Origin: Candidatus Yanofskybacteria bacterium
GTDB lineage: Bacteria; Patescibacteriota; Minisyncoccia; 2-02-FULL-40-12; GWA2-44-9
DNA length: 64,000 bases
Assembly: GCA_020852375.1 (NCBI GenBank)
Contig: JADZAY010000005.1
Span: 19,814 to 83,813, forward strand
Direction: 5' to 3'
Shown: piece by piece, positions 5,071-51,459 of the stretch
How positions within the stretch are numbered: position 1 is the first letter of the stretch
Layout of the letters: every line of letters begins with the position of its first letter
The notes under the pieces: model-generated
Databases searched by the model: none
What the model saw: the letters and a program-made list of their open reading frames with translations, nothing else
What the model was told of the DNA's origin: nothing
Position numbers and translations under genes: made by a program

Positions 5071-5544
5071 ATGCGGGCCATTCCAAAACTCATCATCGCG
5101 GTCGCGGTTTCGCAGCTGGCGGGCGGTGTCGGTTCGCTGTTCACCACCCCCGCGATCCCCGGGTGGTATGCCGGGCTCCTGAAGCCCGCGGTCGCTCCGC
5201 CGAATTGGGTGTTCGCTCCCGTGTGGACGACGCTCTTCCTGCTCATGGGTATTGCGGCATTCCTCGTGTGGCAGAAGGGGCTCGGACGGCGTGATGTGCG
5301 CATCGCGTTGGGCGTCTTCGTGGGGCAATTGGCGCTCAATACGCTCTGGTCGGTGCTCTTCTTCGGCCTCCGCGCGCCGGGTGCGGCATTCGTGGAGATC
5401 CTCATCCTCTGGCTCGGTATTGCTGCGACGATCGTCGCCTTCGCGAAGATCTCCCGACCGGCCGCATGGCTTTTGGTGCCGTACATTCTCTGGGTCAGTT
5501 TTGCCGCCTACCTCAACGCCGCTCTCTGGCTTCTCAACACATGA
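5071..5544 (+). CDS. tspO: TspO/MBR family tryptophan-rich sensory protein
   Basis: WYAGLLKPAVAPPNWVFAPVWTTLFLLMGIAAFLVW is the canonical TspO N-terminal motif; 5 TM helices; ~157 aa from the ATG at 5071. Confidence 0.8.
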   Translation: MRAIPKLIIAVAVSQLAGGVGSLFTTPAIPGWYAGLLKPAVAPPNWVFAPVWTTLFLLMGIAAFLVWQKGLGRRDVRIALGVFVGQLALNTLWSVLFFGLRAPGAAFVEILILWLGIAATIVAFAKISRPAAWLLVPYILWVSFAAYLNAALWLLNT

Positions 5545-9883: not shown

Positions 9884-10314
9884 TGAACATTCACCCGAAC
9901 AGTGCCGCGCTCGGTGCGGCTCTCCTCTTCGGTATCGTCGTCTTTCCCTGGAAGTCGACGGTCGTGACGCTGGGACAGTCGGGGATGTTCCTGTTCGTGG
10001 GTGCCACCTACCTCGCGACTGGCATCATCCTGTATCGGATGTCCGGGTTCTCGTCACAGCTTACGGGAAAGGTGTTCGCGGTCGCGATGGTGATGGCGCT
10101 CATGTATGTGGGCGCTCTCCTCTGCTGTAACTACGCATTCGCGCATCCGAAGGCCAATCTGCCGATCGCGGCGGCGATCACGGCGGCATATCCGCTGGTG
10201 AGCGCCGCGATTACCGTGGTAGCGTTGGGTCAGCGATTCACGCTCCGAGAGACCGTTTTCTTCCTGATGGCGGTCGTCGGTGTATCAGGTCTCGGACTTT
10301 CTTCGAAGGGGTGA
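9883..10314 (+). CDS. small 4-TM membrane protein (EamA/DMT-like half-transporter fold)
   Basis: 144 aa, four hydrophobic helices, translationally coupled to the upstream ORF. Confidence 0.4.
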   Translation: MNIHPNSAALGAALLFGIVVFPWKSTVVTLGQSGMFLFVGATYLATGIILYRMSGFSSQLTGKVFAVAMVMALMYVGALLCCNYAFAHPKANLPIAAAITAAYPLVSAAITVVALGQRFTLRETVFFLMAVVGVSGLGLSSKG

Positions 10315-10322
10315 GGTGAATA

Positions 10323-10526
10323 ATGGGCATGAGCAGTGAGCAGCGGACCCATGAGTGCGGGGAACTGGTAACGCGGGTGCGGATTTCCGATGCGCACGAC
10401 CCGTTTCCGTTCACCCAGTTTCTCGTTCGCGACCCGGAGGACCAGCAGACCTACACCAGCGACTACTGTCCGCGGTGCGGGAAGGAGCTGACCTCGCAAA
10501 ACACGACAGCAGTGAAGCGAACGTAA
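10323..10526 (+). CDS. small zinc-ribbon protein
   Basis: C...CPRCG motif; 67 aa. A strong terminator (10530-10560) follows. Confidence 0.3.
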   Translation: MGMSSEQRTHECGELVTRVRISDAHDPFPFTQFLVRDPEDQQTYTSDYCPRCGKELTSQNTTAVKRT

Positions 10527-10529
10527 GTT

Positions 10530-10560
10530 CACCGCCCCTTGTGGGCGGTTTTTGTTGGGG
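10530..10560 (+). terminator. rho-independent terminator
   Basis: CCGCCCCTTGTGGGCGG followed by TTTTTG. Confidence 0.6.
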
Positions 10561-10607
10561 GTATCGTTGGTGTGCAGTTCTTTGAAAATCACCACAAGGA
10601 GTTCGTC

Positions 10608-11357
10608 ATGACGGCCAAAGGTCTTTTATTCGACGTCACTCGGTGCGCACTTTGTGGTGCGTGCTGGTTAGCCGACAAGGAACGGAACGAGCTTCCCATT
10701 CCCGATGGCGATTTCACCGGTGATCGATTGTCGGATACGACATTCCTCGCCATTGAGCGTCACGGGGCTCGGGGTGTTCGGCATTCCTGCATGCATTGTG
10801 TTCAGCCGACGTGCGCTTCGGTGTGCCCGGTTGCTGCGCTCGAAAAGACTTCGATTGGCGCCGTGGTATACCACCAGGAGCGCTGTATCGGGTGTCGGTA
10901 CTGTGTCGTTGCGTGTCCGTTCTGCATTCCGAAGTACGAGTGGAGCAAGCAGCTTCCGTATGTTCGGAAGTGCGACTTCTGCTACAGCCGCATCGTTGCT
11001 GGAGAGTCTCCGGCATGTGCGGCAGCGTGCCCAACCGGTGCGCTTCTCTACGGTGAGCGGAGTGCGCTTCTGCATATCGCGCATGAGCGCATCGCCGCTG
11101 GCAACGGAACATACGTTGATCGTGTGTATGGGGAGTACGAAGTTGGTGGTACCTCGCTCCTCATTCTGACGGATATCCCACTCGAGGAGTTGGGCTATCC
11201 TACCAACCTTCCCGGTACCCCCATGCCGTCTTTGACGTGGGAGGCGCTCGTAAATGTTCCACGGGTTGTTCTACTCGGTGGGGCGATACTAACCGGACTG
11301 TGGTGGCTCACGAAACGCCGCGAAGAAGTGCATGCGGCTCGGAAGGAGCAGCAATGA
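10608..11357 (+). CDS. 4x[4Fe-4S] ferredoxin-type electron-transfer subunit (HybA/NrfC/PsrB/FdnH-like) with C-terminal TM anchor
   Basis: Four Cys clusters: CALCGAC...CP, CMHCVQPTCASVCP, CIGCRYCVVACP and CDFCYSRIVAGESPACAAACP. C-terminal hydrophobic helix VVLLGGAILTGLWWL. ACAAGGAG RBS. No twin-arginine signal is visible at the N-terminus. Confidence 0.75.
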   Translation: MTAKGLLFDVTRCALCGACWLADKERNELPIPDGDFTGDRLSDTTFLAIERHGARGVRHSCMHCVQPTCASVCPVAALEKTSIGAVVYHQERCIGCRYCVVACPFCIPKYEWSKQLPYVRKCDFCYSRIVAGESPACAAACPTGALLYGERSALLHIAHERIAAGNGTYVDRVYGEYEVGGTSLLILTDIPLEELGYPTNLPGTPMPSLTWEALVNVPRVVLLGGAILTGLWWLTKRREEVHAARKEQQ

Positions 11358-12892
11358 AACGCAGACTCAGCATCGGGTGGCTGTTCCTGGTTACCGTCCT
11401 GGCGGCGGGCCTCTACAGCATGGCCGTGCGCGTGTTCAAGGGGCTTGGTGCGAGTACACATCTGAGCGACCAGTTCCCGTGGGGGCTATGGGTTGGCTTT
11501 GATGTCTTGTGCGGAGTGGCGCTCGCGGCTGGAGCATTCACGCTCAGTGGCGCGGTCTACATTCTGCACCTGGATCGCTACAAGCCGCTGGTTCGGGCAG
11601 CGATCATGACCGGATTCATCGGATACCTTGCGGCGATCGTCGGCCTTCTGTTCGACCTCGGACACCCCTATCGTATCTGGCACCCACTCATCATGTGGAA
11701 TCCGCACTCGGTAATGTTCGAGATCTCGTGGTGCGTGACCCTCTACACAACGGTGCTTGCGGTGGAGTTCAGTGCGTTCGTGTTCGAGCGCCTGCGGATG
11801 ACCTTCGCTGCGCGCGCGGCGCTGGCCATAACGGTCCCACTGGTGATTCTGGGAATCATTCTTTCTACCCTCCACCAGTCGTCGCTTGGCTCGCTGTTCC
11901 TTATCGTGCCGTCGAAGCTGCATCCGCTGTGGTATTCGCCATGGCTCCCGATATTCTTCTTTGCTTCAGCGCTTGCAATCGGATGCGGCATGGTTATCGT
12001 CGAGTCGTTCCTCAGTTCCAAGGCATTCAATATGGAGCTTGAGGTCGACATCCTCTCTAGCCTGGGGCGGGTGCTTGTCGTTGTGCTCGGCGTGTACGGT
12101 CTTGCGCGGGTCATTGATCTGACCGACCGCGGCGTTTGGTACCTGGTTGCAGTTCCCGGCTTCGAACGGTGTATGTTCCTTGCCGAGATTCTCCTTGCTC
12201 CCATTGGTGCGATGGTGCTCATGATGATGCCGAATGCGCGGAAGAACCGCCTCGGGCTCTTCATGGGCGGCCTCATGACGGTCGCCGGGTTCATCTTGAA
12301 TCGCTTCAACGTGAGCATGACAGGTCTCGTCCGCGCTTCGGGAACGAAGTATGTTCCCAGCTGGATGGAGATTTCTGTGACGCTGACGCTTGTTGTGGTA
12401 GCGGTCGCGCTTTTCGCTGTTGCAGCGCGCACACTGCGCATTTTCCCTGATGCCAAACCGTGTTTGGAAGAAGGGCAGACGTGCAAGGATAAGCCGAGCT
12501 GCTGTCTCGTGACGCCTGCGAAGCTGTGGATTCTGGCGATATGGGTTGCGGTGGGTATGCTCATCGTGAACGCCGTACGAGATTTTGCGGCATACCAACC
12601 AGCGGCGGTGCAGCACGAGGCAGTACAACGTGGACCCGCTTCCTATCCCGTGCTTCCGAAGACGCTCACATTTACGCCGTCGGCCGACAGTCCTGGACCG
12701 GTTTCTTTCAGCCATGAGACGCATCATGCGCTTGGGGCCTGCGCGGACTGTCATGCCGGTCGGTTCAGCATTCTACCTCGGGGGACGCACAGCGGAGCGG
12801 GGCGCGACATGCATGCGCCCGAGCGCTGTGGCATGTGTCATGATGGCAAGGCTGTGAGCAATGAATGCACAGCGTGCCACGCTGTTCCATAG
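11354..12892 (+). CDS. NrfD/PsrC/HybB-family polytopic membrane subunit fused to a C-terminal triheme c-type cytochrome domain
   Basis: ATG overlaps the upstream stop (ATGA). About 8-10 TM helices typical of the NrfD family. The C-terminal ~110 aa carry three CxxCH motifs (CADCH, CGMCH, CTACH). Confidence 0.75.
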   Translation: MKRRLSIGWLFLVTVLAAGLYSMAVRVFKGLGASTHLSDQFPWGLWVGFDVLCGVALAAGAFTLSGAVYILHLDRYKPLVRAAIMTGFIGYLAAIVGLLFDLGHPYRIWHPLIMWNPHSVMFEISWCVTLYTTVLAVEFSAFVFERLRMTFAARAALAITVPLVILGIILSTLHQSSLGSLFLIVPSKLHPLWYSPWLPIFFFASALAIGCGMVIVESFLSSKAFNMELEVDILSSLGRVLVVVLGVYGLARVIDLTDRGVWYLVAVPGFERCMFLAEILLAPIGAMVLMMMPNARKNRLGLFMGGLMTVAGFILNRFNVSMTGLVRASGTKYVPSWMEISVTLTLVVVAVALFAVAARTLRIFPDAKPCLEEGQTCKDKPSCCLVTPAKLWILAIWVAVGMLIVNAVRDFAAYQPAAVQHEAVQRGPASYPVLPKTLTFTPSADSPGPVSFSHETHHALGACADCHAGRFSILPRGTHSGAGRDMHAPERCGMCHDGKAVSNECTACHAVP

Positions 12893-12902
12893 TGTACGGG
12901 GA

Positions 12903-12945
12903 AACCCGCGGCCGAGGACTCTGTCCTCGGCCGGTTATTATTGAC
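12903..12945 (+). terminator. rho-independent terminator
   Basis: CCGCGGCCGAGGAC-TCTG-TCCTCGGCCGG followed by TTATTATT. Confidence 0.55.
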
Positions 12946-12999
12946 GAGTCTTGCTGCAGTGGTATATTCGGGAGTGGCACATTAAGAAGGGGTGGTGTC

Positions 13000-13251
13000 A
13001 TGGGACCTCTTATCGTCCTGACGGTGACGTTCTGCGTGTTCTGGGTGATCACATACATCGCCATGCACGTTTCCTGCTATCTCAAGCGGAAATACAAGGA
13101 CACCGAGAACAAGATCGCGAAGTTCCTCATGTCCCTCATGTGCGAATCTTGCCGGGCGGCTTGTGAGAATCACATCATGCTCTTCAAGCGCTCGGTCATG
13201 TTCGCGCTACTTCTTTCGATCGTCGCTACGGCGGCCTACTTCATTCGTTGA
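13000..13251 (+). CDS. small 2-TM membrane protein, Cys-rich, in a locally lower-GC segment
   Basis: 83 aa from the ATG at 13000 (AAGAAGGGG RBS). Its codon usage (AAA/AAG/TAC-rich) departs from the neighbours. Confidence 0.35.
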   Translation: MGPLIVLTVTFCVFWVITYIAMHVSCYLKRKYKDTENKIAKFLMSLMCESCRAACENHIMLFKRSVMFALLLSIVATAAYFIR

Positions 13252-13294
13252 CCACCCTTCGGGGTGGTCGTTTTGTGCGTTCATTGGGTTGAGT

Positions 13295-13735
13295 ATGGTA
13301 CAGTGGGGCATGCATCTCAAACTCCAGCGGCTCCACCCCGCCGCGACACTTCCTAGTTATGCGAACCCTGGCGATGCGGGCATGGACCTGCACACCGTTG
13401 AGCGGGTACTCATTCGTCCCGGAGCGTCCGCGGTGGTCGCGACCGGCATTGCCGTTGCATTGCCGCGTGGGTGTGTCGGGCTTATTTGGGACAAAAGCGG
13501 TCTTGCGACCAAGCACGGACTGAAAGTCATGGGAGGCGTCATCGATGAAGGATATCGGGGCGAGATCAAGGTCGGCCTGGTGAACCTCGGGACGAAGCGT
13601 CTGGTGCTCGAGCCTGGCCATAAAGTTGCGCAGATGTTGGTGCAGAGGGTGAGTCGTGTGACGGTAAAAGAAGTGCCCTCGCTCTCGAGCACTCGCCGCG
13701 GCGCCAAGGGTTTTGGATCCAGTGGTATCAAATGA
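13295..13735 (+). CDS. dut: dUTP diphosphatase
   Basis: LPSYANPGDAGMDLH (motif I/II), GVIDEGYRGEI (motif III), RGAKGFGSSG (motif V). Confidence 0.8.
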   Translation: MVQWGMHLKLQRLHPAATLPSYANPGDAGMDLHTVERVLIRPGASAVVATGIAVALPRGCVGLIWDKSGLATKHGLKVMGGVIDEGYRGEIKVGLVNLGTKRLVLEPGHKVAQMLVQRVSRVTVKEVPSLSSTRRGAKGFGSSGIK

Positions 13736-13747
13736 TATAGTGGGTTC

Positions 13748-14254
13748 ATGCTGTTGTTCTCATGGTTCGGGCGGCGCTTCTCATGGAAGAAGGCATTCGT
13801 TGCATTCCTGGGCGCGCTTGTAGTGAGCATTGGTGTCGTGATCGTACGAAATGAGCGCTTGCCGAGCGCCCCAGATGTGAAAGGAGCAACCTATCTCCTT
13901 GATGGCGAGCGCATCACGCTTACCGGTATATATACTTACTTTGGCAATGAGGCTGCTGGCGACTTGAATGGCGATGGGAAGGACGATGTCGCATTTTTGT
14001 TTGTTGCTCAGCCGGGGGGTTCAGGCTCATTCTATTATGTTGCGGTCGCGTTGCGGGATGGCGGTGGATATCGGGGAACGAATGCCGTATTTCTCGGCGA
14101 CCGGATCGCTCCCCAGACGATTGGGATCAAAGATGGAGCGGTTGTGGTGAATTATGCCGACCGTCGCGCAGGCGAGCCCTACTCGGTGCGCCCATCCGTG
14201 GGCATCTCGAAATACTTTCATGTCCGGAATGGATCGCTGATCGAGATCAAGTAA
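13748..14254 (+). CDS. exported/membrane-anchored hypothetical protein
   Basis: N-terminal TM helix plus a Gly/Asp-rich domain. A bidirectional terminator (14255-14290) follows. Confidence 0.45.
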   Translation: MLLFSWFGRRFSWKKAFVAFLGALVVSIGVVIVRNERLPSAPDVKGATYLLDGERITLTGIYTYFGNEAAGDLNGDGKDDVAFLFVAQPGGSGSFYYVAVALRDGGGYRGTNAVFLGDRIAPQTIGIKDGAVVVNYADRRAGEPYSVRPSVGISKYFHVRNGSLIEIK

Positions 14255-14290: not shown

Positions 14291-15604
14291 TCAGTGGCAG
14301 ACGGGGTTTGCAGTGAGCGTTCCGGTTGCGGTGACCAGTGCCGAGCACTGCATGCCTTTCTTCAGGCCTTTCCAGTACTCCAGCGGTGGGTCGGCGAGCT
14401 GATAGCTCCGGCCCTTCTGGTCTGTGAACGTGACGCGCCGCGTCTCGCTTCGCGCCTTTTCACGCTGTCGGGGTGACAGGTCGGGCGTCGGCCACTTCGG
14501 ATCGGTGTCGAAGGCGCCGGCTCGATCCATGCGCAGGTCGGACCATCGCTCGATGTCGTACGTGTGCTTCAGGGCGTAGACCGGGAACGGTTCCATGATG
14601 TCTTCCGTGCAGGGATGCTTGCACGACACGTACCCGTACTGGTTTTCTTGGCAGTCGTGCGTACAGGAGCGCGTGGTGTACGTGTCCTCGCTGCAGTCGT
14701 GCGTGCACGGCATTGTCGAATAGGTCGGCTCAGAGCAGTAATTTTGCCTGAATCGGCCGTTGCCAAGGTTCGTGGTGCCGCAAGCGTACCGGCGGGTGCC
14801 GGTCTGCATGCGGTGGCCAGAGTGGCAGCGGAAGTGTCGGGTCCCCGTTCTCTCTCGATGCCCACCGGGATGGCAGGTGAAGTGGCGGACGCCGACTTTT
14901 TCACGATCGCCTTGGGGGTGACAGCGGACCGGCCGCTCGCCGATCTTGCGCGAGCCGTAGTGGTGGATGGCCTGATACGAACCGGTCTCGCGACCTCCGG
15001 GCGGGACGGTCCAGTCTTCTTCGTGAACCGTGCGCTCTTCCTCGATGTTGATCGTGCGCTCCCAGGAGACGGTCGTGACCGTGAGCTTCGTCGGGTGCGG
15101 GGTCACAAGCCACCAGATGCCGATCATGGCTCCGATGGCGAGGAGCGCGAGGAGCAGCATGTGGACGGTCAGTGCTCGGTTGATGCGGTCCGGATCGGCG
15201 GCGTTGCTAGCGGGGCGTGAAGCGGTCCTCTTCGGCGCCGCTTCCTCGCGCTGGCGTTGCGTGCGCGGGCTCTCGCTCGGCGCAGCTTCGCGGCTCGTGT
15301 ACTCGGTGACCTTCTGCCGTCGGTTCTCGTCCAGCGGGGCGGAACACTGCGGACACGAGGTCTGACCGGCGGCGACGCTGCTTCCGCAGCTATCGCAGAT
15401 GAGGTCGGATCCGGCCTTCGCCGCAGCGATGCGGCTCGGGTCGGTGACGACTCGGGCATCCGAGGGCAGGTAGAACTCGACGTCTTCGGGGCGCGGGGCG
15501 CCGCAGCCGGCGCACGCCATCGCTTCGCCGTCTTGTCCGGGGTGCCCGTAGGGGCAGTCCCACTTCCCGACGAGGATCTCAGAATCCTCAGGTTCGTCGG
15601 TCAT
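14291..15604 (-). CDS. membrane protein with two cytoplasmic zinc ribbons, one TM helix and an extracytoplasmic His/Cys-rich tandem-repeat domain
   Basis: CPYGH...CAGCG and CDSCG...CPQCS; TM helix LLLALLAIGAMIGIWWLV. Repeats RCHPQGDREKVGVRHF / TCHPGGHRERTGTRHF / RCHSGHRMQTGTRRY, then CTHDCSEDTY / CTHDCQENQY / CKHPCTEDIM. An AT-rich promoter region lies upstream (15605-15720). Confidence 0.5.
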   Translation of the reverse strand: MTDEPEDSEILVGKWDCPYGHPGQDGEAMACAGCGAPRPEDVEFYLPSDARVVTDPSRIAAAKAGSDLICDSCGSSVAAGQTSCPQCSAPLDENRRQKVTEYTSREAAPSESPRTQRQREEAAPKRTASRPASNAADPDRINRALTVHMLLLALLAIGAMIGIWWLVTPHPTKLTVTTVSWERTINIEEERTVHEEDWTVPPGGRETGSYQAIHHYGSRKIGERPVRCHPQGDREKVGVRHFTCHPGGHRERTGTRHFRCHSGHRMQTGTRRYACGTTNLGNGRFRQNYCSEPTYSTMPCTHDCSEDTYTTRSCTHDCQENQYGYVSCKHPCTEDIMEPFPVYALKHTYDIERWSDLRMDRAGAFDTDPKWPTPDLSPRQREKARSETRRVTFTDQKGRSYQLADPPLEYWKGLKKGMQCSALVTATGTLTANPVCH

Positions 15605-17186: not shown

Positions 17187-17552
17187 ATGACGCCCACAAC
17201 GCTCAGAACCATTGCCCTCTGCACGGGAGCCGCGCTGATCGCGACGGCGGTGTTCGGATTGTGCGCGATGACCGTTGATGCCATGGGGTCGCACGACATG
17301 CAGTGCGGGGGCATGGCGCTTGCTTCGTTGCTGTGTGAGTCGACCGTTACGCAGACGAATCTGCATTTTATAACGGTCGCGCTTGCGCTGTTTGTCGGGA
17401 TGGTCGTTTGCCTCGCCGCTTTCCATCGAGTGGCGGCGCCCCTCCTTCGCCCGGCATATCAGCGGGAACGTTTCTATTCTCATCTCCCCATGACCGCTCT
17501 GCGGCTTGCACTCGCGCGGGGTGTCTTGCAACCGAAAGTGTTTTCCAACTAG
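17187..17552 (+). CDS. small membrane protein with Cys/Met-rich loop (MQCGGMALASLLCES)
   Basis: 121 aa, 3 TM helices, immediately upstream of the copper cluster. Confidence 0.35.
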   Translation: MTPTTLRTIALCTGAALIATAVFGLCAMTVDAMGSHDMQCGGMALASLLCESTVTQTNLHFITVALALFVGMVVCLAAFHRVAAPLLRPAYQRERFYSHLPMTALRLALARGVLQPKVFSN

Positions 17553-17595
17553 GGCGCGTTGCGCACAGGCGCAGTGGTCGGATAACACTGAAGTC

Positions 17596-18936
17596 ATGGA
17601 ATACGAATATTACATTGGAGGAACTCATTGCAACTCTTGTCAGATCATTCTTGAGCGAGAGATCGGAAAGCTCCCGAATGTCGCTCGGGTCCGCGTCGAT
17701 GCGGGCAGCGGACGTACGCGAATACGGTGGAATGGAGCCCCGGATCTTGAGCGGCTCGCGGCGACCGTGCGGCATGCCGGATATCAGTTCGGGCGCCGCT
17801 CGCGTTCGTGGATAGCGACCGACGGTTCTACCTGGAGTGCGGCGCTGGTCGCGGCGTGTCTCGTCTTCATCGGTTGGATCGCCGTGCGACTCCTGGGCCT
17901 TGATTCGCTCGCTGCGCGCACTGGCACCGGTATTGGTGCGACCGGCGCATTGGTCGCTGGTCTTACCGCTGGCGTTTCGACCTGCATGGCGTTGGTTGGC
18001 GGGCTGGTGCTGGCGTATGCCGCTCGGCATGCACAGAAACATCCGGAAGCGACGACGATCCAGAAGTTCCGTCCCCACCTCTTCTTCAACGCGGGGCGCA
18101 TCCTTGGTTTCGCGTTGTTGGGCGGGATCGTTGGTGCTGTGGGATCGTTGGCGCGACCGACGCCGGTCGTTACCGGTTGGCTTGTCGTGCTTGCGGGTGC
18201 GGCGATGGCGCTTGTTGGACTTTCGTTGACCGGTCTCGTACCGCGACTCTCGACGCTTTCCTTGCCCGGTTGGATCGCGCGACGATTGGGGATCGGATCG
18301 GATGTACGGGAATACAGCCACCGCGGAGCCATGGTGACCGGAGCGCTCACGTTCTTCGTCCCGTGCGGTTTCACGCAAGCGGCGCAGCTCGCCGCATTGG
18401 CGACCGGCAGCTTCGGAGGCGGTGCGCTCCTGATGGCCGCGTTCGCGGTCGGAACCGCGCCGGGTCTTCTGGGGGTTGGCTGGTTGTCATCGGCGGTGCG
18501 CGGCTCGGGTGGGCGCATCTTCTTCGCCGCGGCGGGGATCACTGCATTCGCGCTCGGCGTCTGGAACATCTCGAACGGATGGACCCTGACCGGCATCGTG
18601 TTGGGAGGTCCGTCGACGGCCGCCCCGGTCCGTCCGGGTGAGCGTGTGAGCGTTGCCGAGGTTCGCGATGGAAAGCAGTACGTCGATATGACGCAAGATG
18701 CGTTCGGGTATAGCGTTGACCGCATCGTGGTGAAGCGCGGGATCCCGGTCGTGTGGCGTGTTACATCGGAGAACTCGTACACCTGCGCGAGCTCGTTGAA
18801 TCTTCCCGCGATGAACATCGCGGTGAATCTTCAGCCTGGCCAGAACGTTGTCGAGTTCACCCCTCAAACGACCGGTCGGATGCGGTTCTCCTGCTCGATG
18901 GGCATGTACCGCGGTATCATCGAAGTTGTTGATTAA
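17596..18936 (+). CDS. three-part fusion: N-terminal HMA metal-binding domain, polytopic DsbD_2/CcdA-like permease domain, and C-terminal cupredoxin-like domain
   Basis: HMA motif YYIGGTHCNSCQ. About 8 TM helices with a conserved Cys (FFVPCGFTQAA). The C-terminal about 100 aa end in GRMRFSCSMGMYRGIIEVVD, homologous to the following small protein. Confidence 0.6.
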   Translation: MEYEYYIGGTHCNSCQIILEREIGKLPNVARVRVDAGSGRTRIRWNGAPDLERLAATVRHAGYQFGRRSRSWIATDGSTWSAALVAACLVFIGWIAVRLLGLDSLAARTGTGIGATGALVAGLTAGVSTCMALVGGLVLAYAARHAQKHPEATTIQKFRPHLFFNAGRILGFALLGGIVGAVGSLARPTPVVTGWLVVLAGAAMALVGLSLTGLVPRLSTLSLPGWIARRLGIGSDVREYSHRGAMVTGALTFFVPCGFTQAAQLAALATGSFGGGALLMAAFAVGTAPGLLGVGWLSSAVRGSGGRIFFAAAGITAFALGVWNISNGWTLTGIVLGGPSTAAPVRPGERVSVAEVRDGKQYVDMTQDAFGYSVDRIVVKRGIPVVWRVTSENSYTCASSLNLPAMNIAVNLQPGQNVVEFTPQTTGRMRFSCSMGMYRGIIEVVD

Positions 18937-18947
18937 CTCACTATCCT

Positions 18948-19307
18948 ATGAGTACTGATGAGATCGCTGTGGTCGTCATTGCGACGATCGGTATTGCGGG
19001 CATCGCGTGGTTCTTCTTTGGAAAACGAACTCGCGCGGTTCGCGCCGGGACGGTTATCGATATCGTAGTCGATGGGGGCTACTCACCCGATACGATCACG
19101 GTTCTGGTCGGGAAGCAGACGACGCTTCGGTTCTTCCGAAAAGATCCGTCCGATTGTCTCGAAGAGGTTGTTATTGCCGATCTCAAGATCCGGCGCACGC
19201 TTGCGCTCGGAGAAGTCACTGAGATCACACTTACTCCGCCGCGTGCTGGTACCTACCGCTTTTCATGCGGTATGGGCATGTATCACGGGGCGATCATCGC
19301 ATCATGA
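18948..19307 (+). CDS. membrane-anchored cupredoxin-like domain protein (Cupredoxin_1-type)
   Basis: N-terminal TM helix, then a beta-sandwich-like domain ending [19 protein letters not shown] (FxC..H..M pattern). Its stop overlaps the copA ATG. Confidence 0.55.
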
Positions 19308-21541
19308 GCCAAACGACCAAAACCTTCCCGATCAAAGGGATGCATTGTGCGTCGTGCGTGACCCTGATCGAAGGGGCGCTCCGTGACGTGCACGGGGTTA
19401 GTACCGCGAATGTGAATCTCGCAAACGAGCGCGCGACCGTTACCTATGATCCGGCGCAGGTCACCGATGAGCAGCTGCGTTCGGCCGTTGCGAGTGTCGG
19501 GTATCAGGCGCTCATGAGTGATGAGCTGGCGCATGAAGATGCTGAGCGAGCTAGGAAACGGCGGGAGCTGGTTGCGCTCCGTTTTCGGGCGCTGTTCAGT
19601 CTTGCGCTGGGTGCGGTGATCGTCTGGGGAAGCTTTCCCGGGATCTCCGCCATTGCCCCCGCGCTGCTTCGGAATGCGTGGTTCCAGTTCGCGGTCGCGA
19701 TACCGGTCCAATTCTGGGCGGGATGGCAGTTCTATCGGGCGACGTGGTCGTCGCTTCGGCATCGGAGCGCGAACATGGATACGCTGGTGACCATTGGAAC
19801 GAGCGTCGCATTCATCTATTCGGCGTTCATGACCATTGCCCCGCATCTCGTTCAGCGGCTTGGTATCATGCCGGAACCCTACTTCGACGTTTCAACCGTG
19901 ATCATCGGGCTCATCCTGCTCGGACGCTACTTCGAGGCACGCGCAAAAGCGGGCACATCGGAGGCGATCCGAAAGCTGTTGGGCCTGCAGGCGAAGACCG
20001 CCCGCGTGATCCGTGACGGGCAGGAGATCGATGTTCCGCTTGCCGAGGTTGCGGTAGACGACGTGCTTCGGGTGCGCCCGGGTGAAAAAGTTCCGGTTGA
20101 CGGGGTTATTCTCGAAGGCGCTTCCGCGATCGATGAATCCATGGTGACCGGGGAAAGTATTCCAGCAGATAAAGGTCCCGGAGATGCCGTTATTGGCGCG
20201 ACCGTGAATCGGAACGGTTCATTCACCTTCCGCGCCACGAAGATCGGTTCTGAAACGATGCTTGCGCAGATCGTTCGCCTCGTGCAGGAAGCGCAGGGAA
20301 GCAAGGCACCCATTCAGCGGCTGGCGGATACCGTCTCGTCCTACTTTGTTCCGGTCGTGCTCATGCTTGCGATCGCAACGTTCGCGCTCTGGTATGTCGT
20401 TGGCCCGGAGCCGTCACTACCGTTCGCGACGCTCTCGATGGTCGCGGTGCTTATCATCGCTTGTCCGTGTGCGATGGGATTGGCGACGCCAACGGCGATC
20501 ATGGTGGGGACTGGTCTTGGCGCTGAGCACGGTATCCTCATCAAGGACGCGGAGGCGCTCGAGATCGCCCATACGGTGAACACGGTTGCCTTCGACAAGA
20601 CCGGAACGCTGACCGAAGGGAAGCCGCGCGTTACTCGCGTCGTTGCCCGAGAGGGGCGCGGTGAAGCGGATATTCTTGCGATCGAGTATGCGCTGGAGCG
20701 CTCGTCGAGCCATCCGGTTGCCGCGGCCATCGTCGCAGAGGCGCGTGAGCGCGGGTTAGCGACACCGCCGGAACCGGAATCGTTCGTCGCAGTGCCCGGG
20801 CATGGCGTCCAGGGAGTTGTTCGTGAGATGTCCGTGCGTGCGGGGACTGAGCGCTTTCTTCGAGCGGGCGGCATCGATACTGCGGTGATGCGAGCGGAGA
20901 TCGACCAGCTTATGGACGAGGGAAACACCGTGACCCTTATCGCGTCCGACGGTGAGCTTGTCGGGGTCATCGGTGTTGCGGATACCGAACGGGCAACAGC
21001 TCGTCAGGCGGTGGCGCAGCTTGTTCGGCGGGGCATTGAGGTTGTGATGATCACAGGGGACCATGAACGGGTCGCCCGCTCGGTCGCGACGCGTCTTGGT
21101 ATCACCCGATTCGTCGCGCAGGTGCTTCCCGAGCAGAAGTCGGCACAGGTTGAGGCGCTGCAGGCGGAAGGAAAGCGCGTTGCGATGGTCGGTGATGGTA
21201 TTAACGATGCTCCGGCGCTCGCGGCGGCCGATATCGGGATCGCTATGGCGAGCGGAACGGATGTCGCGATTGAAGCTGCGGATATCACGCTGGTCAGCAA
21301 GAATCTCGGTGCAATCGCGGTCGCACTGGACTTGTCGCGGCGAACCCTCCGGACGATCCGCATGAACCTTGTGTGGGCGTTTGGCTACAACATCGTTCTG
21401 ATCCCGGTTGCGATGGGAGCGTTGTATCCCGTCTGGGGAGTGCTCTTGAATCCAATGCTGGCATCCGCCGCGATGGCGTTCAGTTCGATCTCGGTCGTGC
21501 TCAACTCGCTCCTGCTCAAGCGGTGGCATGTGAGGGTGTAG
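19304..21541 (+). CDS. copA: copper-translocating P1B-type ATPase
   Basis: N-terminal HMA (GMHCASCV), TM CPC motif ([10 protein letters not shown]), DKTGTLT phosphorylation site, GDGINDAP hinge; 745 aa. Confidence 0.9.
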
Positions 21542-21559: not shown

Positions 21560-22807
21560 ATGCCAGATGTACGTCGGACGATCGTAATCCTTGGCGCGGG
21601 GTTCGGAGGTATCTATGCATACCTCCGACTTCGCGCGCGGATCGATCGGACGACGACTCGCATCGTCATTGTGAATGCGACGAATCACTTTCTCTTCTCA
21701 CCGCTTTTGCACGAGGCGGCAACCGGGAGTCTCGGACTGCATAACGTGGTGCAGGGGGTGCGCGAGATCATCGATGGCGACTGCGCCGACTTGGTTCAGG
21801 CGACGGTCGAATCCATCGATATTTCGGGGCACGTCGTGCGTACCGATCGGGGTCCGATCGGATACGACCACTTGGTGATTGCTACTGGGGCGCATACCGA
21901 TACGATGCGGGTGCCCGGTATCACCGAACACGCTCTATTCTTGAAGGATTTGCACGATGCCCAGCGTCTCCGTGAGCGATTCATCGAGCAGTTCGAGTGC
22001 GCCGGTGCCGCCGGAGCGTCGGGTGTGGTGCAGGGGGCGCTGCGGTTCGTCGTTGTCGGCGGCGGGCCGACAGGCGTGGAGCTTGCCGCCGAGATGAGCG
22101 ACCTACTCTCGACGACCTTTCTCCGATTGTATCGCCGGCGCATCGCTCCGGGGGACGCCGAGATCGTTCTTGTGCATGCCGGGGAGCGGCTGTTACCGCA
22201 GTTCGATGAACATCTTTCGAGGGCCGCGCTTGCGACTCTCCGCCGGAAGGGTGTTCGCGTGCTTTTGAATACTCGCGTTGCCCGCGTCCAGGTTGATGGT
22301 GTTCATGTGGGCGGCGGTTCGTTTCTAGATGCTCATACCGTGATCTGGGTCGCGGGTGTCTGCCCAAGGGTTCCGCTCGCATTTCCGGCACTCCCGCTTC
22401 ACGAGAGTGGGCGTATCGCGGTCGACGAGTTCCTTCGCGTGCGCGGGACTGATTCGGTGTGGGCGCTCGGCGATGTTGCCGCCGCGTTCGATCAGAACGG
22501 AACACTCCTGCCGATGCGGGCACAGGTTGCCGTGTGTGAGGCGGAGTATTGCGCGGACAATGTCGTCGCAGCGATCGCAAAGAGGCCGCTTTCCGCGATG
22601 CAGTACGAGAGCAGAGGGGACCTCGTGTCGCTGGGACGCTGGAGCGCGGTCGGCCGCATTGCAGGGATCCGCTGGTCGGGACCGTCCGCCTGGTGGCTCT
22701 GGCGGACCGTGTATCTGTTCAACTTCGCGTCGTGGGGGAAGCGGCTCCGGATCGCTGTCGATTGGACGGTCGGCCTATTCGCCCCGCGGGACATCACAAG
22801 CGTCTAG
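21560..22807 (+). CDS. ndh: type II NADH:quinone oxidoreductase (NDH-2) / FAD-dependent pyridine nucleotide-disulfide oxidoreductase
   Basis: Two Rossmann GxGxxG motifs (IVILGAGFGGIYA and VVVGGGPTGVELAAE); about 415 aa, typical NDH-2 size. Confidence 0.7.
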   Translation: MPDVRRTIVILGAGFGGIYAYLRLRARIDRTTTRIVIVNATNHFLFSPLLHEAATGSLGLHNVVQGVREIIDGDCADLVQATVESIDISGHVVRTDRGPIGYDHLVIATGAHTDTMRVPGITEHALFLKDLHDAQRLRERFIEQFECAGAAGASGVVQGALRFVVVGGGPTGVELAAEMSDLLSTTFLRLYRRRIAPGDAEIVLVHAGERLLPQFDEHLSRAALATLRRKGVRVLLNTRVARVQVDGVHVGGGSFLDAHTVIWVAGVCPRVPLAFPALPLHESGRIAVDEFLRVRGTDSVWALGDVAAAFDQNGTLLPMRAQVAVCEAEYCADNVVAAIAKRPLSAMQYESRGDLVSLGRWSAVGRIAGIRWSGPSAWWLWRTVYLFNFASWGKRLRIAVDWTVGLFAPRDITSV

Positions 22808-29450: not shown

Positions 29451-30224
29451 ATGAACGAGAACGAACCGATGCTTGCAGAGGGCGGAATGTCCCGCCAAGA
29501 ACGCCGAGAATTGAAACGGCAGCAGCGCCAGTATGCCCCGCTTTTCCAGCGTCGAGGGGTTCGACGCGGACTTCTCTGGGCGGGTGGATTTGCCGTGCTC
29601 GTGCTTATCGGCTGGGGGATGGTGAAGCTTTCGGCGAACGAACCGCTTCCAACGAACGGAAGTGGAAGCGTCCTTTCCATCCCCGTGGGTCCGCAAGACA
29701 ACAGCAAGGGCCCGCAGGACGCCCCGGTCACGCTTGTCGAGTATAGCGACTTCCAGTGCCCTGCATGCGGTGCGTTCGCTCCGGTCGTCGAGCAGTTGTT
29801 GAAAGACCCGGAACTTGTCGGCAAGGTGCGTTTCGTGTATCGCAATTTCCCGCTCTCCAGCATCCATAAGAACGCCGATCTTGCAGCGCAGGCCGGACAG
29901 GCAGCGGCGGCGCAGGGGAAGTTCTGGGAGATGCACGACCTCCTATTCGAGAACCAGACCAAATGGTCCGGGTTATCGTCTTCCGGCGCGCGGGATGCAT
30001 TCATTGGCTTCGCACGCACCATCGGATTAAATGTGGACGCCTTCACGAAAGCGCTCGCGGACAGCGCTGTTGCCGCGCGGGTGAAGGCGGACTTCGACGG
30101 AGGGCTGCAGTCGGGAGTGAACAGCACGCCGACATTCTTCGTGAATGGTACGAAGATGCCGCATCCGCAGAGTCTCGCGCAGTTCAAGCAGTATCTAACC
30201 TCCGCACTCAATGCGACTCCCTAA
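29451..30224 (+). CDS. DsbA-family thiol:disulfide oxidoreductase (membrane-anchored)
   Basis: Thioredoxin-fold CxxC in EYSDFQCPACGAF; N-terminal TM anchor. Confidence 0.7.
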   Translation: MNENEPMLAEGGMSRQERRELKRQQRQYAPLFQRRGVRRGLLWAGGFAVLVLIGWGMVKLSANEPLPTNGSGSVLSIPVGPQDNSKGPQDAPVTLVEYSDFQCPACGAFAPVVEQLLKDPELVGKVRFVYRNFPLSSIHKNADLAAQAGQAAAAQGKFWEMHDLLFENQTKWSGLSSSGARDAFIGFARTIGLNVDAFTKALADSAVAARVKADFDGGLQSGVNSTPTFFVNGTKMPHPQSLAQFKQYLTSALNATP

Positions 30225-30630
30225 ATACCTTGCAATCCTGTTCTGCGTCGCCGCGCTCGTTGGATTCGCCGATGCCGCATACCTGACCGCGCAGCATGTG
30301 CGTGGCGTGATCCCGCCGTGTGTCGTGCTCAACAACTGTGAGCGCGTTCTTACGAGCGCATACGCGAGCATCGGACCCATCCCGGTTGCTGCGCTTGGCG
30401 TGTTCTACTATGGCGCGGTTCTCCTCTTGCTGATCGCGTTCTTCGATACGAAGAATCGCCGGCTCCTGCATATCGCGGCATGGCTCGTGAGCGCGGGCAT
30501 GCTTGCGTCGCTGTACTTCGTGTACGTCCAGCTCTTTATTCTGAACGCGCTTTGTCCATACTGTCTGGTATCGGTGCTGACGACCACGATCATGTTTGCG
30601 GTCTCGGTGCGGATCATGTATCTCGATTAA
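30211..30630 (+). CDS. vitamin K epoxide reductase (VKOR) family protein
   Basis: Loop Cys pair (PPCVVLNNC) and active-site CPYC within the 4th TM helix; 139 aa. Confidence 0.7.
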   Translation: MRLPKYLAILFCVAALVGFADAAYLTAQHVRGVIPPCVVLNNCERVLTSAYASIGPIPVAALGVFYYGAVLLLLIAFFDTKNRRLLHIAAWLVSAGMLASLYFVYVQLFILNALCPYCLVSVLTTTIMFAVSVRIMYLD

Positions 30631-50334: not shown

Positions 50335-51459
50335 ATGCGCGATCCCTTTTCCACGCGCCTGATCGAGGCGTTCTACCGGCGTGCGGCAAAGCCGCTGCTG
50401 TTCCGAGCAGATCCTGAACGGGTGCACGACCGTTTTACGGCGATCGGGAGGGTGCTTGCTTCCATAGAGCTGACGCGGCGTGCGACGCGGGCGCTCTTCC
50501 GTTTCGATGATCCGGTGCTCGAGACCGTCGTTGCCGGCATCCGCTTTGCAAATCCCGTCGGGCTCGCCGCGGGATTCGATAAGAACGCCCAGCTGTGGAA
50601 TATTCTCCCGGATGTCGGATTCGGGTTCGCCGAGTTCGGGAGTATTACCGGAAGGCCGTGTGCGGGAAATCCGAAACCACGGTTGTGGCGTATGCCCGAG
50701 CACGAAGCATTGCAGGTGTACTACGGCCTCAAGAACGACGGCGCAGCAGTGATCGCCGCGCGGCTTCATGGAGTACATCCCCGCATGCCGATCGGTGTGA
50801 GCGCCGCAAAAACGAACAGTCCGGAGACTGCGGAGCCGGATGCGGCGATTGCCGACTATCGCGCAGTGCTCGACGCGTTTCGGGATATCGCTGACTACTA
50901 CACTGTGAACATTAGTTGTCCGAATGCGTACGGCGGTCAGCCGTTCACCGATCCGGCGTTATTGGATCGGCTCATGTCAGCTGTTGATACGGGGTCGTAT
51001 CTGCAGCCGATCTTTGTAAAGCTCTCGCCCGATCTCGATGATGCTCAGCAGGATGCCATTCTCGAAGTGCTCGACGGGCACCGGGTGCACGGAATCGTGT
51101 GCACGAACCTCACGAAGGATCCCCGCAGTGCCGGAATCGCGCCCGAACGGGTTCCCGGGCGGGGAGGAATCTCTGGACGAGCGGTGCAGGCGGCGTCCGA
51201 GCACCAGCTCTCACGGATATGGCAGCGCACGCACGGGAAGTATGTGCTTGTCGGCGTTGGCGGCGTGTTTACCGCCGAAGATGCGTACCGAAAGATCCGT
51301 CTGGGCGCATCGCTGGTTCAGCTTATTACGGGTATGGTCTATCGCGGTCCACAGGTGATCGGGCAGATCAACCGGGGACTCGCAGCGCTTCTCCGTCGGG
51401 ACGGGTTTTCGAGCATTACCGAGGCAGTGGGGGTGGGGGTAGGAGAGAAGGGGAGTTGA
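50335..51459 (+). CDS. pyrD: dihydroorotate dehydrogenase (quinone), class 2
   Basis: N-terminal quinone-site helix segment, FANPVGLAAGFDKN, GFGFAEFGSIT, NISCPNA and a C-terminal FMN-binding GVGGV motif; 374 aa. Confidence 0.85.
   Translation: MRDPFSTRLIEAFYRRAAKPLLFRADPERVHDRFTAIGRVLASIELTRRATRALFRFDDPVLETVVAGIRFANPVGLAAGFDKNAQLWNILPDVGFGFAEFGSITGRPCAGNPKPRLWRMPEHEALQVYYGLKNDGAAVIAARLHGVHPRMPIGVSAAKTNSPETAEPDAAIADYRAVLDAFRDIADYYTVNISCPNAYGGQPFTDPALLDRLMSAVDTGSYLQPIFVKLSPDLDDAQQDAILEVLDGHRVHGIVCTNLTKDPRSAGIAPERVPGRGGISGRAVQAASEHQLSRIWQRTHGKYVLVGVGGVFTAEDAYRKIRLGASLVQLITGMVYRGPQVIGQINRGLAALLRRDGFSSITEAVGVGVGEKGS

Follow-up and report, generated by a model that had tools for sequence, protein, structure and literature searches.

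Membrane redox systems of the Hmc and Nhc type are among the closest described relatives of the module discussed here, which lies in a 64,000-nucleotide stretch of a Candidatus Yanofskybacteria genome (assembly GCA_020852375.1, contig JADZAY010000005.1, positions 19,814 to 83,813; the whole of this stretch is called the window) and consists of two overlapping genes, A and B, with a small third gene, C, downstream. Hmc and Nhc combine a tail-anchored iron-sulfur (Fe-S) subunit with four clusters, a cofactor-free NrfD subunit of 10 transmembrane helices and a c-type cytochrome on the outer face of the membrane, through which electrons enter or leave. The same parts are recognized in the window, where HmcB and HmcC are the best profile matches. 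In contrast to Hmc and Nhc, in which the 16-heme or 9-heme cytochrome is a separate protein, the module has its cytochrome as a c7 domain on the membrane subunit itself, joined to it via an 11th helix. Unlike Hmc, the module has no HmcE or HmcF, and its Fe-S subunit is without a signal for twin-arginine translocation (Tat). Neither HmcA, HmcE nor HmcF was found among the scanned open reading frames (ORFs) of the window or in relatives from the Candidate Phyla Radiation (CPR), and the operon holds no separate multiheme cytochrome gene of the Nhc type.

HybA and HybB of Escherichia coli hydrogenase-2 give the second-best profile matches and share with the module the topology of the anchor and a heme-free, quinone-interacting subunit. 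However, HybA has its own Tat signal and HybB no cytochrome domain, whereas the window contains no hydrogenase genes; neither the profile scores nor the neighborhood, in which no [NiFe] hydrogenase adjoins, places the pair within hydrogenase-2. Three-gene modules encoding a tail-anchored Fe-S protein, a HybB-like "quinol oxidase" and an octahaem cytochrome c have been described (PMC10924467). These have the same three functional parts and likewise no conserved catalytic neighbor or assigned function. The same paper includes a tail-anchored Fe-S protein, itself signal-less, that would hitchhike with a Tat-dependent [FeFe] hydrogenase, and this protein is a precedent for placing such a subunit on the outer face. 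The module differs from these in that the c7 domain is fused to the membrane subunit and the signal-less Fe-S protein has no adjoining Tat partner. The Cbc4 system of Geobacter sulfurreducens (CbcS/CbcT/CbcU), a putative menaquinol:cytochrome c oxidoreductase (bioRxiv 10.1101/2025.04.14.648717), is compared by architecture only: it comprises a multiheme cytochrome anchored in the membrane, an integral membrane subunit and a protein that contains four [4Fe-4S] clusters, with a proposed flow from quinol via the Fe-S protein and the cytochrome to a periplasmic partner, but CbcS is a separate tetraheme protein of the NapC/NirT type and not a fused c7 domain.

More distant systems share single features. 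Alternative complex III and DsrMKJOP also have an outer-face Fe-S relay together with multiheme cytochromes, and DsrJ is triheme as well, although not of the c7 type. The molybdopterin-like domain of ActB, the pentaheme ActA, ActF, ActD and ActE of alternative complex III are all absent here, and only the NrfD fold is shared. The c7 domain itself resembles the PpcA family and GSU1996, with three CxxCH motifs and aligned distal ligand positions; where those are soluble periplasmic proteins, it is the C-terminal appendage of a polytopic protein. By its profile matches the module belongs to the NrfD family and bears a c7-type domain, whereas low equivalog scores, missing partner subunits and the lack of a Tat signal set it apart from Hmc, hydrogenase-2, Nhc and alternative complex III. 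The literature searched, coverage of which was incomplete, yielded no description of the NrfD-c7 fusion, of the signal-less clade or of the CPR-specific additions discussed below, and neither "fused" nor "fusion" occurs in a review on NrfD-like subunits (PMC8076601). The sequences are public and are annotated only generically; protein B is identical to NCBI MCC6934226.1, a "Ni/Fe-hydrogenase cytochrome b subunit."

The two core genes and their parts are as follows, in coordinates of the window:

10597 to 10602, forward strand: Shine-Dalgarno sequence AAGGAG, 5 nucleotides upstream of the ATG of gene A.
10608 to 11357, forward strand: gene A (249 amino acids), an Fe-S protein of the HybA/HmcB/FdnH type that has four cluster motifs, a tail anchor and no signal peptide.
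11354 to 12892, forward strand: gene B (512 amino acids), an NrfD domain followed by an 11th helix and a c7 triheme domain.
11354 to 12448, forward strand: NrfD (HybB/HmcC-like) domain of gene B, with 10 transmembrane helices and a predicted cytoplasmic N-terminus.
12461 to 12505, forward strand: four-Cys motif KPCLEEGQTCKDKPSCC of gene B (C370, C377, C383, and C384), in the loop between helices 10 and 11.
12512 to 12577, forward strand: 11th transmembrane helix of gene B, predicted to take the C-terminus to the outer face.
12686 to 12892, forward strand: c7-type triheme domain of gene B with CADCH, CGMCH, and CTACH (the range includes the stop codon).

We consider that A and B, probably together with C, make up a small complex in the membrane, of the "dimeric redox module" kind represented by NrfCD, HybAB and HmcBC. 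On balance we favor the interpretation that this complex is a quinol:cytochrome electron outlet, with its hemes on the outer face, that serves the NDH-2, the quinone-dependent DHODH and the VKOR encoded in the same window. The interpretation builds on the domain composition, the conservation of ligands, the helix count, purifying selection and the conserved gene order. Judging from solved relatives, (mena)quinone or quinol would bind to the NrfD domain of B near the outer face, and electrons would pass between this site and the four-cluster chain of A, which its own C-terminal helix would hold on the outer face. A would in turn exchange electrons with the c7 domain and its three bis-His c-type hemes; helix 11 and a linker of ~40 residues would tether this domain to B on the face shared with A, and the hemes would exchange electrons with an extracytoplasmic partner. 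Flow in the direction of quinol oxidation, with the module as an outlet, is favored because NDH-2, the class-2 DHODH and the DsbA/VKOR pair all feed the quinone pool and no quinol oxidase is seen in the window.

Both genes are real ORFs with the coordinates given in an earlier note on this DNA, which had been made from the sequence alone, and they overlap by the ATGA at 11354-11357. The NrfD assignment of B is clear: it matches PF03916 over residues 36-326 (1.9e-18; 67.6 bits vs. a cut-off of 25.8), it has ten helices plus one, and the gene for a four-cluster Fe-S subunit lies directly upstream, as expected for this family. Matches to HmcC (4.3e-87, 292.8 bits) and HybB (5.6e-77, 259.8 bits) do not reach the respective cut-offs of 550 and 450, and that to QrcD (2e-39) is also under its cut-off; the homology to HybB and HmcC spans the whole 10-helix core. 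In an AlphaFold2 (AF2) model of a fusion protein that is introduced below, the fold of the NrfD part matches the alternative complex III subunits ActC and ActF. No heme-binding motif is present within the NrfD part of B. Residues D50, D101, S119, and E123 of B correspond to Asp68, Asp119, Ser137, and Glu141 of NhcC at a constant offset of +18, and S177 to Ser200 at an offset of +23. These candidate quinone-site residues, counterparts of those published for NhcC (PMC8076601), which were matched by constant offset and not by alignment to NhcC, fall in the most conserved blocks of the family alignment.

The C-terminal region of B matches Cytochrome_C7 (PF14522; 5.5e-7, 29.7 bits vs. a cut-off of 24.8) and the triheme model TIGR04257 (44.5 bits vs. 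a cut-off of 40). GSU1996, a dodecaheme protein (3ov0, 7e-23), has four c7 domains, and the last 79 residues of B align to every one of them, with the three CxxCH motifs (CADCH at residue 463, CGMCH at 492, and CTACH at 505) and the distal His positions in register. These are the only heme motifs of the module. The distal histidines H454, H457, and H487 are conserved. One ligand position is a Met in GSU1996 and adjoins a conserved His in the B family (DMH); we take this His to be an axial ligand, in which case all three hemes would be bis-His, like those of PpcA.

For gene A, the Pfam search gave a match to Fer4_11 (5.8e-20). Among the NCBIfam models, HmcB (2.3e-68, 230.6 bits) and HybA (1.2e-52, 179 bits) score highest without reaching their equivalog cut-offs of 420 and 263, and DsrO scores only 78 vs. 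a cut-off of 200. The closest relative in the PDB is FdnH (1kqf_B, 3.4e-26 by sequence), which is also the top fold match, over 252 alignment columns vs. a chain of 289 residues. As in the HybA/FdnH class, the protein ends in an anchor, a helix at about residues 213-234 (11244-11309), and a basic tail, TKRREEVHAARKEQQ; the basic tails of its homologs are longer. Gene A encodes 16 Cys, and the fourth ligand position of motif I (CALCGACWLAD) is occupied by Asp23 (10674-10676), so that the cluster ligands comprise 15 canonical Cys and one Asp. In FdnH, the residue aligned with Asp23 is a Cys that ligates a cluster. Under the customary ligand scheme for DmsB and FdnH, the motif that bears this Asp presumably belongs to an internal cluster of the relay, and its presence suggests an Asp-ligated [4Fe-4S] or a [3Fe-4S] cluster at that position. 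The matches to Fer4_11, PF03916 and PF14522 thus uphold the description in the earlier note of an overlapping HybAB/NrfCD-type pair with an NrfD protein fused to a triheme domain, and the alignment to 3ov0, together with the scores over both cut-offs, bears out the cytochrome fold of the CxxCH region. Of the four [4Fe-4S] Cys motifs claimed for A, all four are present, but motif I is not all-Cys.

The arrangement of the module in the membrane follows from several lines of evidence. Both a hydropathy reading and the helices of the fusion AF2 model give B ten NrfD helices and an 11th, and predicted inner loops have a higher density of K+R (0.23) than predicted outer loops (0.07); the N-terminus is therefore placed inside and the C-terminus outside. 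A c-type heme domain has to be on the outer face. A natural triple fusion, P0075 (819 amino acids; at 10001-12460 of locus L006, and present both in an NCBI metagenome-assembled genome and on a second contig), carries the Fe-S, NrfD and c7 domains in one chain, with 1 + 10 + 1 helices between the Fe-S and c7 domains and a Lys-rich linker of ~60 residues between the A-type helix and NrfD helix 1. As this number of helices (12) is even, the Fe-S and c7 domains of P0075 should be on the same side. The AF2 model of the fusion (predicted local distance difference test, pLDDT, 73; predicted template modeling score, pTM, 0.62) was used for the helix count and the fold matches only. Since the homology of B to HybB and HmcC takes in the complete 10-helix core, the face on which the Fe-S subunit docks should be the outer one, as in Psr and alternative complex III, solved relatives in which the Fe-S partner of the NrfD-type subunit docks there.

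Given the 11-helix parity of B, the positive-inside rule, the basic tail of A and the 12 helices of P0075, we are fairly confident that the Fe-S domain of A shares the outer face with the hemes, an arrangement like that of HybA and FdnH. This departs from the earlier note, which had described the Fe-S protein as apparently cytoplasm-facing on the strength of its missing signal only. The transmembrane Fe-S:cytochrome conduit considered there also finds no support, as the NrfD part has no heme motif and published NrfD subunits carry no redox cofactor (PMC8076601).

The missing signal itself is real. The alignments of HmcB and HybA to gene A start only at positions 36-38 of the profiles, at the end of the signal peptide, and the signal-peptide region is therefore absent from A; no RR motif is found in the in-frame stretch upstream of A back to the stop codon (from 10539). 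Of 120 A homologs, 114 have a first CxxCxxC that starts at residue 12-24, and only 3 have an RR upstream of this motif. In the stop-to-stop upstream frames of 70 Fe-S ORFs taken from the genome loci, three matches to a Tat motif were found, none of them followed by a hydrophobic signal-like stretch. An alternative upstream start that would add a signal to A-type proteins was rejected, since these frames hold no convincing Tat motif, and the KRR at the N-terminus of B was rejected as a Tat signal-anchor because it is not conserved in homologs. The absence of a signal characterizes the clade as a whole, as seen across the ~190 relatives examined, and, in contrast to the HybA/FdnH class, neither an own nor an adjoining Tat signal is present. 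FdnH is a signal-less, tail-anchored periplasmic Fe-S subunit that is exported with a Tat-signal partner, and PsrB and QrcC are further subunits of this kind. Hitchhiking has also been proposed for one signal-less HybA-like protein that adjoins a Tat-dependent [FeFe] hydrogenase (PMC10924467). Passage with a Tat substrate is the only known precedent by which A might be exported.

The surroundings of the module would supply the partners on the quinone side. NDH-2 at 21560-22807 is confirmed, with its C-terminal domain, as is VKOR at 30211-30630 (PF07884, 2.5e-24), and the class-2 DHODH (50335-51459) passes the quinone-dependent equivalog models (NF003652, 346 bits vs. a cut-off of 267). No molybdopterin, hydrogenase, nitrite-reductase or quinol oxidase gene was seen among the Pfam-scanned ORFs of the window. 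Here our results agree with the earlier note, which had named the same three enzymes and no adjacent catalytic subunit, and the quinol:cytochrome role that it had considered is also our best interpretation. A gene for DsbA (29451-30224) overlaps that for VKOR by 14 nucleotides. The two make a quinone-dependent disulfide-forming pair, which implies that proteins are folded oxidatively outside the cell in this CPR bacterium. The window is CPR-like in its content, with many ORFs without a Pfam match beside RNase Y, a class-A penicillin-binding protein, MnmA, a short AlaRS and Dus. From position 4.3 kb to position 21 kb it is syntenic, at 73-88% nucleotide identity, with the Yanofskybacteria metagenome-assembled genome SJ168 (L007), and the locus is therefore not a mis-binned fragment.

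Several observations weigh against a quinol:cytochrome outlet of the proposed form. The direction of electron flow is its weakest link, as it is drawn only from the gene content of one window. An outer-face A with its clusters in place needs an export route, and we identified none; a partner with a Tat signal was found neither in the window nor next to homologs, and ResB/CcsA, Ccm and tatA/tatC were not found in the window. Many close relatives, including the CPR-clade protein P0011, are without c7, so the hemes are not essential to the core pair. Outside CPR, a linkage to kinase and sigma-54 regulator genes could point to a sensory and not a bulk respiratory role. Finally, the fusion AF2 model is of only moderate quality, as the pLDDT and pTM values given above indicate.

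The main rival is the reversed direction, as in Qrc, Nhc and hydrogenase-2, which we regard as unlikely in spite of these precedents. The complex and its topology would be the same, but the c7 domain would take electrons from an external donor (candidates are a cytochrome in its reduced state, Fe(II), a shuttle derived from the host, and a hydrogenase or dehydrogenase of the periplasm) and the module would reduce quinone while taking up cytoplasmic protons, which has been shown for Qrc and proposed for Nhc and hydrogenase-2. The hemes of c7-type proteins, as in the PpcA family, generally have low potentials, which would suit donation to menaquinone. The best scores of B are those against HmcC, HybB, and QrcD, a clade described as quinone-reducing and electrogenic: QrcCD is electrogenic, and HybB and HmcC are argued to work alike (PMC6303296). 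Nhc is likewise listed as a TpIc3:quinone oxidoreductase (PMC8076601). On the other hand, all three quinone-linked enzymes found are themselves quinone reducers, the window has no quinol-oxidizing enzyme that could use the quinol made, and no donor enzyme is encoded nearby. This gene content argues for the outlet direction.

Beyond the core pair, the CPR loci share additions that the earlier note had overlooked. The features around and downstream of the pair are:

10531 to 10549, forward strand: terminator-like hairpin and T-run with a 7-base-pair stem (6 GC pairs) and the tail TTTTGTTGGG.
12909 to 12933, forward strand: hairpin directly 3' of gene B with an 11-base-pair stem (9 GC pairs) and a weak T-tail.
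12941 to 12968, forward strand: sigma-70-like promoter match TTGACG-16-TATATT upstream of gene C, with 10 of 12 positions and a TG (a match to the consensus only).
13000 to 13251, forward strand: gene C (83 amino acids, two transmembrane helices), NCBI hypothetical protein MCC6934227.1.
13249 to 13270, forward strand: terminator-like hairpin and T-run 3' of gene C.
Homologs of gene C: 11646 to 11894 in L007, 11319 to 11591 in L087, 11655 to 11897 in L088 and 11612 to 12061 in L001 (L001/L002).

The first of these hairpins is terminator-like and would end the upstream gene and set the 5' boundary of the A-B unit. That at 12909-12933 may be a terminator or an attenuator between B and C; given the promoter match that follows it, gene C may be transcribed partly independently of A-B. 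Gene C lies directly 3' of B in all five CPR-clade loci checked. It has no profile match and no family assignment in Pfam or NCBIfam, and about 20 representatives are found among 1.84 billion proteins, similar in size to the CPR clade of A and B. Its Cys residues C26, C48, C51, and C55 are invariant and form the pattern C-x21-39-CxxCxxxC within a K/R-rich loop, which is predicted to be cytoplasmic. The gene order Fe-S protein, NrfD protein and small hydrophobic protein mirrors hmcBCD and nhcBCD, and gene C is likened to the third protein by position only.

The second addition is the four-Cys loop of B, with the pattern KPCL-x4-TC-x-DK-x2-CC, which is restricted to the CPR clade; acidobacterial homologs have no Cys there. 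Helix parity predicts this loop to be cytoplasmic, which together with gene C gives eight conserved Cys on the predicted inner face. The third is the Asp at the fourth position of motif I, which is present in 19 of 19 CPR-clade A homologs, whereas 99 of 101 others have Cys. All CPR-clade members examined have these three traits in common. The clade is small, with 19 clusters of A at 63-88% identity and B homologs at 61-91% identity; the next relatives beyond it are 51-58% identical, depending on the subunit and the span, and a metagenome scan added only two further contigs, both short (L089 and L098). In one CPR member, P0011 (L087), c7 is lost while helix 11, gene C and A are kept. The same locus encodes, within 6 kb of the module (5072-5473; 11624-13901), a membrane-anchored blue-copper protein (H...C...H...M) and a cytochrome b5, and also, within 6 kb, a NOX/FRE-like ferric reductase with Ferric_reduct, FAD and NAD domains.

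A more far-reaching proposal starts from these additions. In CPR, the three proteins might form a complex with an eight-Cys metal or Fe-S site on the inner face and an Asp-ligated cluster, or the clade as a whole might export its Fe-S subunit independently of a Tat signal, by a route not yet described, and the module would then be the main electron outlet of a fermentative episymbiont. We give this only a slim chance. In the first case the complex would have a function without a counterpart among described NrfCD modules; for example, it could link a redox or thiol reaction in the cytoplasm with quinone chemistry and the outer-face hemes.

It could also be supposed that the Fe-S domain is cytoplasmic and that the module carries electrons across the membrane to hemes on the outer face, a proposal we find quite improbable. 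The lack of a signal peptide in A and ~190 relatives and the lack of a Tat-bearing partner next to any homolog would be explained, and the four-Cys motifs of B and C in CPR could bind metal or Fe-S on the inner face. Against it, the 12 helices of P0075 put the Fe-S and c7 domains on the same side with the hemes outside, the basic flank of the A helix is C-terminal as in FdnH and HybA, and A aligns end to end with the periplasmic HmcB, HybA, and FdnH, anchor included. Moreover, the NrfD part of B offers no heme motif and thus no wire over the ~30 Å bilayer, and in Psr and alternative complex III the Fe-S partner of the NrfD-type subunit is docked on the outer face. The outlet topology, with A and the hemes on the same outer face, fits these data.

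The distribution of the family is far wider than the terms "orphan" and "not a standard architecture" used in the earlier note would suggest. A protein search returned more than 7,900 significant homologs of B, and nearly all of the best 120 combine NrfD and C7. Relatives are encoded at 585 candidate loci in a data set with one genome per species; the top 80 of these are mainly from Acidobacteriota (Blastocatellia, Terriglobia), with others in KSB1, Eisenbacteria, Gemmatimonadota, Myxococcota, NC10, Bacteroidota, and Ignavibacteriota. We tabulated 84 loci, the best 80 together with L001, L003, L004, and L006. Three heme motifs are present in 22 of the 84, and the other 62 encode an NrfD protein of ~400 amino acids without the cytochrome. 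An A-type Fe-S gene was recovered at most ~1.5 kb upstream of the B homolog in 70 of the 84 loci, usually within 150 nucleotides. In L038, L052, L116, L124, L133, and L145 (from NC10, Binatia, and several contigs of metagenomes), B is matched by tblastn over ~2.1-2.2 kb instead of 1.5 kb, so that these have extra sequence, or a split of the gene, between the NrfD and c7 parts. Near the P0075 fusion (L006) are genes for an NrfA-like cytochrome, a molybdopterin oxidoreductase and a cbb3 oxidase.

Outside CPR, the pair is part of a larger cluster in Acidobacteriota, Bacteroidota, Ignavibacteriota, and Abyssobacteria (L003, L004, L006, L027, L031, L034, L041, L057, L063, L073, and L085; ~7-16 kb of each). 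It starts with one to three membrane-anchored GcvH-like proteins (PF01597), followed by the Fe-S protein and NrfD with or without c7, and continues with a HAMP-HisKA kinase that has one CxxCH. A sigma-54 response regulator and then a Peptidase_M54 protein complete it. In most members of this kinase-linked cluster the NrfD is without a cytochrome domain, and the literature searched yielded no description of it. Its conservation suggests that the module might be mainly a redox-sensing or poising device and not a bulk respiratory enzyme, and would bring a redox center on the outer face into equilibrium with the quinone pool; outside CPR, the sensor domain with one heme in the adjoining histidine kinase would be this center. 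We strongly doubt this: no kinase or regulator was found next to the module in CPR loci, so that the idea fits CPR poorly, a two-component system beside an operon more often regulates that operon, and four clusters and three hemes would be a heavy investment for a sensor.

Conservation within CPR indicates that the module is maintained. Between the window and SJ168, the ratio of nonsynonymous to synonymous substitution rates (dN/dS) is 0.066 for A, 0.062 for B and 0.156 for C; within B it is 0.035 for the NrfD core and 0.067 for c7 alone. In the same comparison all heme-binding Cys and His are kept, as are the distal H454, H457, and H487. The low dN/dS values and the kept heme ligands argue against a decaying import. 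That the module is a horizontally acquired remnant with no working holo-complex in a reduced genome, for example because the machinery for export of heme or Fe-S is absent, is scarcely credible: the closest relatives beyond CPR are ~50% identical and mostly from Acidobacteriota, which suggests transfer, the CPR clade is rare (~19 A clusters and ~20 representatives of gene C) and the window holds no maturation genes, but purifying selection is strong on A, B and C and on c7 by itself (dN/dS 0.06-0.16), CPR members that are 61-91% identical retain every heme and cluster ligand, and conserved, lineage-specific additions fit adaptation and not decay.

Two further regions of the window were noted in the course of the analysis. 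A copper-handling cluster occupies 17506-21541, with NDH-2 directly 3' of it, and includes an unusual fusion of HMA, DsbD_2 (a CcdA-like channel) and Cupredoxin_1 domains (17506-18936, 476 amino acids), a cupredoxin-like protein of 119 amino acids (18948-19307) and a Cu P-type ATPase. The DsbD_2 protein was considered as a CcdA-type channel for cytochrome maturation and rejected, because it is fused to HMA and Cupredoxin_1 domains in a copper-handling cluster. The cupredoxin-like protein was rejected as an electron acceptor of c7, as it belongs to the copper cluster and carries a motif other than a blue-copper H...C...H...M site. On the reverse strand, 14291-15604 is an ORF of 437 amino acids without a Pfam match that has N-terminal zinc-ribbon-like CxxC pairs, one hydrophobic segment and repeated Cys/His motifs at its C-terminus (e.g., CTHDCSEDTY, CTHDCQENQY, and CKHPCTED).

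To our knowledge, CPR bacteria (Patescibacteria) are generally regarded as fermenters without respiratory chains. One Parcubacterium with NDH-2 and multiheme cytochromes has been described (PMC5220378), the only exception that we located; respiratory genes in CPR are thus rare but not unprecedented. The clade to which the module belongs spans hundreds of genomes from Acidobacteriota, Bacteroidota, KSB1 and others, and we found no account of it in the literature searched. It also poses a puzzle of cell biology, as a tail-anchored protein with four clusters is expected outside the cell without an export signal or a visible partner. For the organism itself, a module under selection beside NDH-2, DHODH and VKOR suggests that some Yanofskybacteria keep a working quinone pool and an electron outlet on the outer face, which bears on how these episymbionts balance their redox state and on their dealings with hosts or minerals.

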